A DNA stretch of 1,334 nt from Escherichia coli (GTDB lineage: Bacteria; Pseudomonadota; Gammaproteobacteria; Enterobacterales; Enterobacteriaceae). This document shows positions 1-1,130 of this stretch, in pieces. The notes below the pieces were generated by a model. The model was not told the DNA's origin. It did not search any database and saw only the letters and a program-made list of their open reading frames with translations. The stretch lies in NCBI RefSeq assembly GCF_003334815.1, contig NZ_QOWO01000100.1; one strand, written 5' to 3'. Within the stretch, counting starts at the first letter, position 1. The number at the start of each line of letters is the position of its first letter. Position numbers and translations under genes: made by a program.

Positions 1-804
1 AACCAGATGGACCCGGTGTACACGCCGGCGCGAAAAATCCACCTGTACCACTGCGACCATCGCGGCCTGCCGCTGGCGCTTGTCAGCACGGAAGGGGCAA
101 CAGAATGGTGCGCAGAATACGATGAATGGGGCAACCTGCTGAATGAAGAGAACCCGCATCAGCTGCAGCAGCTTATCCGCCTGCCGGGGCAGCAGTATGA
201 TGAGGAGTCCGGCCTGTATTACAACCGCCACCGCTATTATGACCCGCTGCAGGGGCGATATATCACTCAGGATCCGATTGGGCTGAAAGGGGGATGGAAT
301 TTTTATCAGTATCCGTTGAATCCGATCTCAAATATAGATCCATTAGGATTAGAAACACTAAAATGCATTAAGCCACTGCATTCAATGGGCGGAACTGGTG
401 AAAGAAGCGGTCCAGATATATGGGGGAATCCGTTCTATCATCAATATCTTTGTGTCCCAGATGGTAAAGGGGACTATACTTGTGGTGGCCAAGACCAACG
501 GGGAGAATCAAAAGGAGATGGTCTATGGGGGCCAGGTAAAGCAAGTAATGATACAAAAGAAGCTGCTGGCCGTTGTGACCTCGTTGAAACCGATAATAGT
601 TGTGTGGAGAACTGTTTAAAAGGGAAGTTTAAAGAGGTAAGGCCGCGTTATTCTGTATTGCCTGATATATTCACACCTATAAATTTAGGGCTATTTAAAA
701 ACTGCCAAGACTGGTCTAATGATTCTTTAGAAACATGTAAGATGAAGTGCTCCGGAAATAACATTGGACGTTTTATTAGATTTGTATTCACCGGAGTGAT
801 GTAA
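1..804 (+). CDS. rhsC: Rhs family protein, C-terminal portion (5'-partial; gene continues upstream of the window): conserved core tail plus variable C-terminal putative toxin domain
   Basis: The frame is open from nt 1 (AAC CAG precede the ATG at 7), so the ATG at 7 is an internal Met, not the start. The translation carries a terminal YD-type repeat ([22 protein letters not shown]) and the Rhs core-terminating motif [13 protein letters not shown] (DPLGL at nt 337-351). Downstream of it composition switches to AT-rich and the protein becomes a Cys/Gly-rich 150-aa tail ([14 protein letters not shown]...FVFTGVM). Stop codon TAA at 802-804. The symbol is recalled from E. coli K-12 RhsC element organisation and needs BLAST confirmation; the family call is firm. 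Confidence 0.88.
337..351 (+). other. DPxGL motif (DPLGL) marking the end of the Rhs conserved core and the boundary to the variable C-terminal domain; expected autoproteolytic release site
   Basis: Codons gat cca tta gga tta at 337-351, preceded by PLNPISNI. In characterised Rhs/YD-repeat proteins this PxxxxDPxGL element ends the core and an aspartyl-protease-like activity cleaves here. The GC-rich to AT-rich switch falls within about 20 nt of this motif. Confidence 0.8.
352..801 (+). other. Variable C-terminal domain of the Rhs protein (putative toxin domain, about 150 aa, 9 cysteines, function not identifiable from sequence)
   Basis: Everything after DPLGL to the stop. AT-rich, unlike the core. 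Residues [96 protein letters not shown]... I see no HNH, HExxH, deaminase HxE/CxxC or ART signature. Confidence 0.7.
793..796 (+). promoter_or_regulatory. Shine-Dalgarno-like GGAG for the downstream membrane-protein gene, lying inside the 3' end of the rhs CDS
   Basis: GGAG at 793-796, 7 nt upstream of the ATG at 804-806. Together with the stop/start overlap TAATG (802-806) this suggests translational coupling. Confidence 0.55.
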
Positions 805-1130
805 TGAAATATATTATTTTTTTATTCAGAGCTATATGGCTGGCTTTATCGCTTTTAATACTATTCTTTTCCATGCATAGACTTTCACTATTAGACTCCA
901 CTCGTGATGTGAGCGAGTTAATTAGTCTCATGTCTTATGGAATGATGGTAATATGTTTTCCAACAGGCATAGTATTCTTTATTGCTCTAATATTTATAGG
1001 GACTGTATCAGACATTATTGGCGTAAGGATTGATAGTAAGTATATTATGGCGATAATAATATGGCTTTATTTTCTGTCAGGAGGGTATATTCAATGGTTT
1101 GTATTAAGTAAGCGCATTATAAACAAATAA
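804..1130 (+). CDS. ybfB: Small polytopic inner-membrane protein (108 aa, about 3 predicted TM helices); putative cognate immunity protein for the upstream Rhs C-terminal domain
   Basis: Complete ORF from ATG 804 to TAA 1128-1130. The start overlaps the rhs stop by 1 nt (TAATG) and has a GGAG SD. It shares the AT-rich composition of the rhs C-terminal domain, so they look like one module. Three hydrophobic stretches: YIIFLFRAIWLALSLLILFFS, ISLMSYGMMVICFPTGIVFFIALIFIGTV and YIMAIIIWLYFLSGGYIQWFVL. The position immediately 3' of an Rhs toxin domain is the canonical immunity-gene slot. The symbol is recalled (K-12 ybfB is, to my memory, a 108-aa membrane protein downstream of rhsC) and unverified; the immunity role is inference. 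Confidence 0.72.
   Translation: MKYIIFLFRAIWLALSLLILFFSMHRLSLLDSTRDVSELISLMSYGMMVICFPTGIVFFIALIFIGTVSDIIGVRIDSKYIMAIIIWLYFLSGGYIQWFVLSKRIINK

Follow-up and report, generated by a model that had tools for sequence, protein, structure and literature searches.

The rhsC–ybfB locus

We analyzed a 1,334-nucleotide stretch of Escherichia coli DNA (contig NZ_QOWO01000100.1; hereafter the window, meaning this stretch at its full length), which carries the 3′ end of the Rhs gene rhsC, the small gene ybfB, and the start of a truncated rhs fragment. RhsC and YbfB are products of K-12 genes without an assigned function that occur in about half of 5426 complete E. coli genomes, and we here propose a concrete role for them. 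In the reading that we consider probable on balance, though well short of secure, the C-terminal tip of RhsC would be a periplasmic enzyme of the permuted NlpC/P60 type that attacks the cell envelope, and YbfB would be the membrane protein conferring immunity to it.

Identity between the window and E. coli chromosomes reaches 100%, and 2536 of the 5426 genomes contain at least 80% of the window. RefSeq annotates, 5′ to 3′, the rhsC 3′ end, ybfB ("protein YbfB", WP_000873944.1), and the beginning of an rhs fragment truncated at its N-terminus; the annotated rhsC–ybfB of E. coli G4/9 is a 100% match to the window, and the tip of K-12 RhsC in UniProt (P16918) is likewise identical (100%) to the window tip. 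The upstream rhs open reading frame (ORF) runs from 7 to 804 on the + strand and ends with a TAA stop at 802–804. The organization of the window is that of an Rhs cassette, in which a core bearing a PxxxxDPxGL-type motif leads into a variable C-terminal tip, and a compositionally distinct, low-GC tip and immunity gene are followed by orphan cassettes. GC content is 55–64% in the core, 27–46% over approximately 300–1150, and about 60% again after 1160, a dip that looks like the usual signature of a swapped-in tip/immunity cassette. The core of the window has a median of 5 matching places per genome, and the tip is unlike those of other rhs loci. The features of the window, all on the + strand, are as follows.

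1–336, +: 3′ end of the conserved rhsC core (Pfam RHS PF03527, E 7.6e-15, ORF residues 11–47)
271–285, +: DPIGL, the core-terminating motif, read from the sequence
337–351, +: second DPLGL, start of the variable tip and, with its D, residue 1 of the toxin numbering; the hidden Markov model (HMM) of the toxin family starts here, and the motif is conserved in the family alignment
352–804, +: RhsC C-terminal toxin domain, 150 residues plus TAA, Cys-rich, with a predicted permuted NlpC/P60 papain-like fold
439–441, +: codon of His35 (ORF residue 145), the predicted catalytic His, in YHQYLCV on a β-strand (model strand E34–41); invariant in 27/27 sequences
703–705, +: codon of Cys123 (ORF residue 233), the predicted nucleophile, in NCQDWS at the start of model helix H123–139; invariant in 27/27 sequences
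793–796, +: GGAG, Shine-Dalgarno-like, inside the end of rhsC, 7 nucleotides 5′ of the ybfB ATG
802–806, +: TAATG, in which the rhsC stop (802–804) shares one base with the ybfB start (804–806); read from the sequence, with the same boundaries in RefSeq genomes
804–1130, +: ybfB (WP_000873944.1), 108 residues, a predicted four-helix inner-membrane protein and putative cognate immunity protein
957–968, +: F52-P53-T54-G55, a helix-breaking turn of YbfB between H33–50 and H54–72; P53 is invariant in 53 sequences
1080–1100, +: G93-G94-Y95-I96-Q97-W98-F99, the YbfB-family signature in helix 4, present in all distant loci; Q97 and W98 are invariant, and G94, Y95, and F99 are conserved at 90% or more
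1161–1334, +: start of the orphan, N-terminally truncated rhs core fragment, annotated as a partial rhs coding sequence 31 nucleotides past ybfB; it lies outside the toxin/immunity pair and inside the cassette array

An original prediction, made from the letters of the window, had described an ATG-initiated ORF at 804–1130, a stop/start overlap with rhsC, and a GGAG element ahead of it, and had read the product as an immunity protein with three membrane spans. The ORF is present and encodes 108 residues, the TAATG overlap lies at 802–806 with one shared base, and GGAG stands at 793–796, 7 nucleotides ahead of the ATG. Position 804 is the first possible start in this frame, which is open from 780 and contains none earlier. 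We rejected the possibility that the ORF is an artefact of AT-rich sequence: the chance of 108 stop-free codons under a mononucleotide model is 1.8e-4, and 0 of 1000 shuffles reached 108 codons in any frame. The gene was found in 2694 of the 5426 complete genomes, 2686 of them carrying it at an identity of at least 99%. Relatives keep the toxin and immunity genes close, ranging from overlap to a gap of 13 nucleotides, and this conserved spacing, together with the geometry in the window, makes translational coupling between ybfB and rhsC plausible.

The RhsC tip and YbfB-family genes travel together

We approached the genomic contexts of the pair from both sides, starting from diverged toxins and from distant YbfB members, and ran the HMMs of both families over all loci. 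The tip (from DPLGL at 337–351 to 801) has homologues with as little as 44% identity, most of which form the end of an Rhs protein. A YbfB-family gene lay 0–13 nucleotides 3′ of the RhsC-type tip in 8 of 10 independent contexts, namely those of E. coli, E. cloacae, Buttiauxella, four metagenomic lineages with intact pairs, and one decayed locus. The YbfB-family ORF begins 3 nucleotides past the toxin in Enterobacter cloacae (L002), and the next ORF in Buttiauxella (L003), also of the YbfB family, overlaps the toxin stop. The degenerate metagenomic copy (L004–6) shows toxin and immunity gene decayed together. At the four loci reached from YbfB members of 22–32% identity (L007, L009, L011, and L014), the same Cys-rich tip ends 1–27 nucleotides upstream. 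Because the pair is kept down to this level of identity to YbfB, it behaves as a toxin/immunity cassette.

The pair also recurs behind different Rhs cores and as orphan cassettes, so that linkage tracks the tip and not the chromosomal neighborhood. The two genes have almost the same distribution among E. coli genomes, a full ybfB being carried by 2659, slightly more than the 2545 with a full toxin tip. The immunity proteins diverge faster, their pairwise identities being 23–46% as against 38–71% for the toxins; the toxins of E. coli and Buttiauxella are 71% identical, whereas their immunity proteins are only 32% identical. A rule for toxin–immunity pairs at Rhs and contact-dependent inhibition (CDI) loci, comprising position, size, overlap, and a low-GC cassette, has been described (PMC3150448). 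That tip and YbfB-family gene stay together in E. coli, Enterobacter, Buttiauxella, and metagenomic lineages supports the immunity role first proposed for the gene, and we regard the combined observations as strong circumstantial evidence, not proof, that ybfB is the cognate immunity gene of the RhsC tip.

YbfB is predicted to be a four-helix membrane protein

YbfB is very hydrophobic and polytopic, as had been proposed, with a grand average of hydropathy (GRAVY) of +1.22 and three Kyte–Doolittle blocks at approximately 3–24, 39–77, and 80–102. An AlphaFold2 model built with the 53-sequence family alignment (predicted local distance difference test, 95; predicted template modeling score, 0.84) has four helices, at 2–29, 33–50, 54–72, and 79–107. 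The middle hydrophobic block is modeled as a helical hairpin broken at F52-P53-T54-G55. The distribution of charge fits this arrangement: Lys and Arg number 7.1 inside versus 1.5 outside in a four-span model with both termini in the cytoplasm (N-in/C-in), which is favored in 52 of 53 members, and the mean net charge of the 53 members is +2.0 for the N-tail, +4.0 for the C-tail, and −1.0 for loop 1. We also found four natural tandem fusions of two YbfB-family domains, joined by linkers of 12–21 residues that contain no hydrophobic segment and, in three of the four, carry 5 Lys/Arg; since no hydrophobic segment intervenes, each domain should have an even number of spans. Four spans with both ends cytoplasmic are thus the most likely topology on these predictions. 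The gene, its overlap, the GGAG element, and the polytopic membrane protein of the original prediction therefore stand, and its count of three spans, which neither the model nor the charge bias and fusions confirmed, is probably wrong. We rejected helix 1 as a cleavable signal peptide, as it is a conserved and confidently packed helix of the bundle with a near-invariant W12. The parts of YbfB predicted to be exposed to the periplasm lie around residues 30–32 and 73–78 and otherwise comprise only the outer helix ends.

A word-indexed search returned only enterobacterial relatives of YbfB (E. coli/Shigella, Salmonella at 66% identity, and one sequence at 53%). With the profile extended by two relatives from loci of diverged toxin homologues, a search of 1.84 billion proteins retrieved 412 cluster representatives (clusters at 50% identity; E ≤ 1e-3), most of them 105–125 residues long and matching end to end. 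Features shared across the 53 aligned sequences are a helix-1 Trp, a first loop that is acidic ("DGxPNSD"), FPxG with its invariant Pro, GYxQWF, and a Lys/Arg-rich C-tail. The window protein, which served as the seed, conforms to the family definition made here in length, four helices, W, FPxG, GYxQWF, and basic C-tail. YbfB and the 53 relatives had no Pfam match at E ≤ 1e-3, colicin-immunity families included, and a Foldseek search of the YbfB model against AFDB50 returned its own uncharacterized family and no named membrane-protein family. YbfB with its relatives and the toxin family described below make two protein families of considerable size that are absent from current domain libraries.

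Several unusual entries surfaced among YbfB relatives. The Foldseek matches included UniProt Q9AVI3, a 238-residue "putative senescence-associated protein" of Pisum sativum with a 107-residue stretch 100% identical to YbfB; this plant entry almost certainly reflects E. coli contamination or a chimeric clone. P0040 (175 residues, from a Logan assembly) begins with 46 residues of a Salmonella-type YbfB N-terminus and continues into an unrelated PF25218 domain ending in "NNCKTFAHD", a chimera that probably arose by recombination or frameshift within a toxin/immunity array. Double-domain genes lie at L012 2981–3694 and L013 234–947, with further fusions in P0110, P0117, and P0121, and the one whose surroundings we examined lies among housekeeping genes (for FtsJ/S4-like, methyltransferase, and MFS transporter proteins), with no toxin close by. 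It may be an orphan broad-spectrum immunity gene, or it may point to a role of the family that is independent of toxins.

The RhsC tip resembles permuted NlpC/P60 enzymes

We numbered the toxin from the D at 337–339 and aligned 27 family sequences down to 44% identity. Invariant among them are H35, C39, C49, G50-G51-Q52-D53, C89, C93, R102, Y105, C123, C134, and C138, and C10 and C80 are near-invariant; the family thus has 8 further conserved Cys besides C123, and a CxxxC motif occurs on each of the two main helices. The modeled structure is a papain-like α+β fold, circularly permuted, in which H35 lies on a strand ahead of the helix that has C123 as its first residue, both residues being invariant in 27 of 27 sequences. 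Fold matches to the toxin model, with their scores, were as follows.

YiiX: 7.3
Aichivirus 2A: 6.6
TseH, an effector of the Vibrio cholerae type VI secretion system (T6SS): 6.4
PLAAT4: 6.1
Bacillus cereus cysteine peptidase (3kw0): 5.9
PPPDE: 5.7
CLN5: 5.5

All of the good matches are enzymes, and the named Foldseek matches outside the toxin family are mostly PPPDE proteins. At the level of sequence, the tip had no match in Pfam or NCBIfam, 0 of the 27 members matched LRAT, Peptidase_C92, DUF4105, DUF6695, or PPPDE even at E ≤ 0.1, and the toxin profile gave only chance-level matches against sequences of the Protein Data Bank (PDB). From the model and the conserved residues we infer that the tip is a Cys123/His35 hydrolase or acyltransferase with four disulfides that is active only in an oxidizing compartment. 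For the disulfides themselves, the pairing C10–C80, C39–C49, C89–C138, and C93–C134 is a guess from where these residues lie in the secondary structure of the model.

The tip is hydrophilic, with a GRAVY of −0.60, a best 19-residue hydropathy of 0.63, no hydrophobic segment, and nine Cys. This composition, the enzyme fold with its invariant His and Cys, and the absence of any Pfam match to colicins or colicin-immunity proteins speak against the analogy with pore-forming colicins that had been drawn for this locus. Action of the toxin in the periplasm or at the inner membrane, suggested at the same time, is by contrast supported and most likely, given the nine conserved Cys, the permuted NlpC/P60 fold, and fold relatives that act in the periplasm. 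Enterobacterial toxins, those of the E. coli clade included, carry an extra hydrophobic or amphipathic C-terminal tail (window 754–801, residues ~140–155), and in most other members only a Lys/Arg-rich tail (CKKK, for example) follows the final Cys. Judged by their sequences, the two tail types look like alternative devices for membrane association, which fits interfacial binding.

At its N-terminus, RhsC contains DUF6531 and matches PAAR only weakly (E 0.18). T6SS delivery of the tip is therefore presumed from enterobacterial Rhs proteins in general.

Comparison with known toxin–immunity systems

Rhs toxins with adjacent immunity genes, and membrane-localized immunity to envelope toxins, are already established, and since the concept is established our reading should be only moderately surprising to a specialist. 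Tox-Act1 (STox_15), the toxin of the closest characterized system, is an Rhs tip of Salmonella enterica with a permuted NlpC/P60 core (PLoS Biol 2026, PMC12994826; preprint PMC11996579). It is toxic only in the periplasm, acts as a phospholipase A1 on phosphatidylglycerol and phosphatidylethanolamine, loses toxicity upon H43A or C151A substitution, and is countered by Imm-Act1, a membrane immunity protein with two transmembrane (TM) helices (PMC12994826). We took the Tox-Act1 motifs from the primers in that paper, used a degenerate DNA pattern (TGNNCTTH) to recover homologues in Enterobacterales genomes, and assembled an 8-sequence toxin alignment. Comparison of the RhsC C-terminal tip (RhsC-CT) family with this alignment by hhalign gave a probability of 0.1%, and that of the YbfB family with an Imm-Act1 alignment gave 0.2%. 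No entry under YbfB, RhsC, or the Salmonella accession numbers of this family turned up in the supplements of the Tox-Act1 paper, though the family may be among its 128 candidates by another name.

The two systems nevertheless share an Rhs C-terminal tip, an immunity gene right after it (overlapping there, with a one-base overlap here), a small membrane immunity protein, invisibility to Pfam-type models, and action in the periplasm as opposed to the cytoplasm, which for RhsC-CT is predicted from its model. They differ in their motifs (TGxGHxF and GNNCTTH in Tox-Act1; YHQYLCV and NCQDWS in RhsC-CT), in size (a core of ~180 residues, as aligned here, versus ~125–150 for RhsC-CT), and in the ~8 extra conserved Cys of RhsC-CT, which are missing from the Tox-Act1 sequences that we retrieved. 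Imm-Act1 has 2 TM helices, a ~35-residue periplasmic loop, and a C-terminal FKKIR, whereas the YbfB model has 4 helices with hardly any loop between them. The activity of Tox-Act1 is proven, and that of RhsC-CT is predicted by analogy. As far as these sequence comparisons go, RhsC-CT/YbfB resembles Tox-Act1/Imm-Act1 in architecture and probable site of action and is not a member of those families. It would thus be the second case, unrelated in sequence to the first, in which a toxin of the NlpC/P60 type has a membrane protein as its immunity partner.

Other systems resemble the pair in part. TseH (PDB 6V98; immunity protein TsiH) is toxic only in the periplasm (PMC4453574), and phospholipase activity was reported for it in the Tox-Act1 paper (PMC12994826); it is a stand-alone effector of 223 residues encoded beside a PAAR gene, not an Rhs tip, and its Pfam family, DUF6695, is not matched by RhsC-CT. 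The LRAT/PLAAT (H-RAS-like suppressor) and YiiX-like proteins are housekeeping enzymes or enzymes of eukaryotic lipid metabolism, not toxins, lack the disulfide framework, and have no profile match to RhsC-CT. Tse5 (RhsP1) of Pseudomonas aeruginosa is, as here, an Rhs toxin with a small integral cytoplasmic-membrane immunity protein, Tsi5 (PMC9637101). Tse5-CT, however, forms pores, depolarizes, and has no enzyme fold, in contrast to the hydrophilic, enzyme-like RhsC-CT, and Tsi5 has 2 predicted TM regions. Colicin immunity proteins of the Cai/Cei type (3–4 TM) are, like YbfB, polytopic inner-membrane proteins of ~110 residues encoded next to their toxins. YbfB has no sequence match to them, and the RhsC tip contains neither a colicin pore domain nor a hydrophobic hairpin; the likeness is one of size and topology only. 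A membrane-embedded immunity protein had been called atypical for Rhs toxins, which overstates the case in view of the published examples of Tsi5 for Tse5 (PMC9637101) and Imm-Act1 for Tox-Act1 (PMC12994826). The immunity role and the envelope target of the original prediction thus hold up, and its colicin analogy, its three TM spans, and the label "atypical" do not.

Among the Tox-Act1 homologues, Morganella psychrotolerans (L018) has a PAAR-fused toxin followed by an apparent recombined toxin-tail/immunity remnant and an intact Imm-Act1-like gene (8558–8914 and 8963–9226), which appears to be an example of cassette reshuffling.

A proposed model for membrane-embedded immunity and its alternatives

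We propose the following mechanism. The RhsC tip would be delivered, presumably by the T6SS, and would work in the oxidizing periplasm as a compact, disulfide-rich Cys/His enzyme on the surface of the inner membrane. Its likeliest chemistry, by analogy with Tox-Act1, would be cleavage of the acyl ester bonds of membrane phospholipids. Expression of ybfB may be tied to that of the toxin through the one-base overlap and the Shine-Dalgarno element inside the toxin gene. YbfB in the inner membrane would then stop incoming or leaked toxin within the membrane plane, where the enzyme docks on the outer leaflet, its short periplasmic loops and outer-leaflet helix ends binding the membrane-docking or substrate-entry face of the enzyme. 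If confirmed, the pair would offer a small, highly confident four-helix model for how a bilayer-embedded protein neutralizes a soluble interfacial enzyme.

To our knowledge, K-12 has no T6SS. For this reason, and with the toxin presumably inert in the reducing cytoplasm of the producer, a ybfB deletion would be expected to be viable in K-12 with rhsC intact. The Keio ybfB deletion is viable in this strain, and no growth defect is reported (PMC12706066).

Several observations weigh against this proposal. Some YbfB members stand without a toxin, in two contexts, namely a tandem double-domain gene among housekeeping genes (L012/L013) and a member on a short contig (L016). A mirror-tree test on seven toxin/immunity pairs found no co-variation (r = 0.17, p = 0.46) and was uninformative. 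Our literature search found no experiment on RhsC-CT or YbfB, the papers that mention ybfB containing no work on its function, and no experimental topology of YbfB; its four-span topology is a prediction, and a three-span N-out/C-in model, with 6.1 Lys+Arg versus 2.5, also fits the C-terminal charge. The periplasmic loops of YbfB are ~3–6 residues long and offer little surface for classical toxin binding, and its most conserved positions (W12, M47, P53, and G94–F99) would fall in that half of the bundle predicted to lie toward the cytoplasm. The lipid substrate is an analogy, since no sequence-level link connects the pair to Tox-Act1, Imm-Act1, DUF4105, DUF6695, LRAT, or Peptidase_C92. Finally, PPPDE proteins of permuted papain fold cleave peptide or isopeptide bonds, and TseH was first described as a cell-wall enzyme.

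This last point leads to an alternative that we rate as unlikely but deserving of attention, in which the toxin is an amidase or endopeptidase directed at peptidoglycan or lipoproteins, as is classical for NlpC/P60 enzymes and was first proposed for TseH, and YbfB still confers immunity but is membrane-embedded incidentally. The fold evidence serves such an enzyme equally well and a periplasmic site is equally compatible with it; TseH causes lysis and rounding and has been described as a cell-wall enzyme (PMC4453574). PPPDE relatives, moreover, cut isopeptide bonds. The known immunity proteins to cell-wall effectors, however, are soluble periplasmic proteins or lipoproteins, and YbfB is predicted to offer almost nothing to the periplasm. 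The amphipathic or polybasic tails of the toxins suggest docking to membranes, the permuted branch of the NlpC/P60 superfamily is the one tied to acyl and lipid substrates, and TseH itself proved active as a phospholipase in a liposome assay (PMC12994826). We consider it improbable, too, that YbfB acts indirectly by altering, shielding, or repairing the lipid substrate of the toxin without binding the toxin. The very short periplasmic loops would suit such a role, as would the position of the residues conserved family-wide (W12, P53, G94, Y95, Q97, W98, and F99) in the predicted cytoplasmic half and not at the periplasmic face, the pairing of 71%-identical toxins of E. coli and Buttiauxella with 32%-identical immunity proteins, and the YbfB members without a toxin gene, some of them tandem double domains beside housekeeping genes. 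Yet YbfB displays no catalytic-looking constellation and matches no enzyme or transporter family, and at 108 residues it would make a very small enzyme or flippase. The inner-leaflet cluster of conserved residues may simply form the packing core of the bundle, and polymorphic toxin systems commonly contain orphan immunity genes.

We assign very little weight to the idea that YbfB, in the manner of colicin immunity proteins or Tsi5, recognizes the membrane-inserted helices of a pore-forming RhsC tip. A small, polytopic protein almost wholly embedded in the membrane would suit intramembrane recognition, membrane immunity to pore-formers is well documented, in one instance for an Rhs toxin (PMC9637101), and in the E. 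coli clade the toxin has a short C-terminal tail that is hydrophobic or amphipathic. Most of the toxin family, though, lacks this tail and has a Lys/Arg-rich one instead; the best 19-residue window of the tip (0.63, at an overall GRAVY of −0.60) is far under the level of a membrane helix; and 9 conserved Cys, an invariant His/Cys pair in papain-like arrangement, fold matches that are enzymes throughout, and the lack of a Pfam colicin or colicin-immunity match all point elsewhere. It seems just as far-fetched that YbfB has nothing to do with immunity and is an unrelated small membrane protein, or a helper with which the producer handles its toxin, merely co-inherited with the tip. Immunity is read here from sequence, a ybfB deletion has no reported growth defect, and an osmotic role has been speculated from the position of the gene near kdp (PMC9976479). 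Against this, linkage follows the tip and not the neighborhood, with the pair recurring in unrelated genomes and metagenomes, behind different cores, and in orphan cassettes, and its position, size, overlap, and low-GC cassette fit the toxin–immunity rule for Rhs and CDI loci (PMC3150448).

A bolder version of the reading that we prefer would make RhsC-CT/YbfB a second lineage of lipid-targeting permuted-NlpC/P60 toxins that evolved independently, with bilayer-embedded immunity of a mechanism not described before for enzyme toxins, and would make the W12/P53/G94–F99 cluster functional and not merely structural. In such a mechanism, YbfB would either recognize the membrane-inserted interfacial surface of the enzyme within the membrane plane or protect the lipid substrate itself. 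We put this forward as speculation and think it rather doubtful.

Expression signals and cassette arrangement around ybfB

A scan for promoters (with a simple sigma-70 consensus) and terminators detected nothing above shuffled expectation, and it placed no terminator between rhsC and ybfB or after ybfB. In published genomic SELEX (systematic evolution of ligands by exponential enrichment) data, the sigma-32 and sigma-E holoenzymes have binding peaks within rhsC that were attributed to the upstream region of ybfB (K-12 coordinate 732870; PMC5493296). By approximate mapping, these peaks fall at about 650–800 of the window. They may mark an internal promoter and expression of immunity independent of the toxin, a hint that we note as such. 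Separately, a genome-wide screen placed the Keio ybfB mutant among the E. coli diets that lower FAT-7 expression in Caenorhabditis elegans (P = 0.0036; PMC12706066), a phenotype that the immunity role leaves unexplained.

Beyond the orphan rhs fragment (from 1161), the genome continues with ybfC and further immunity genes. In E. coli G4/9, the one strain with a 100% match to the window, the module of partial rhsC and ybfB is tandemly duplicated immediately 3′ of the window (L001 9161–11001), so that rhsC–ybfB, partial rhsC–ybfB, and partial rhs–ybfC follow one another. KCTC 2571 and other strains have a single rhsC–ybfB copy, behind which lie the ybfC cassette and a gene for an NTF2-fold immunity protein. 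An apparent 700-bp structural difference between strains was dismissed because the annotated layout agrees with the window; the two-piece BLAST joins behind it most likely stem from the repeated rhs core. In Enterobacter cloacae (L002 1–2923), an RhsC-CT-like orphan cassette sits within an array. Upstream of it lies a tip that weakly matches PLA2G12 (phospholipase A2-like) and then an ankyrin-repeat protein, and downstream of the YbfB-like gene an ORF of 138 residues resembles a lipoprotein.

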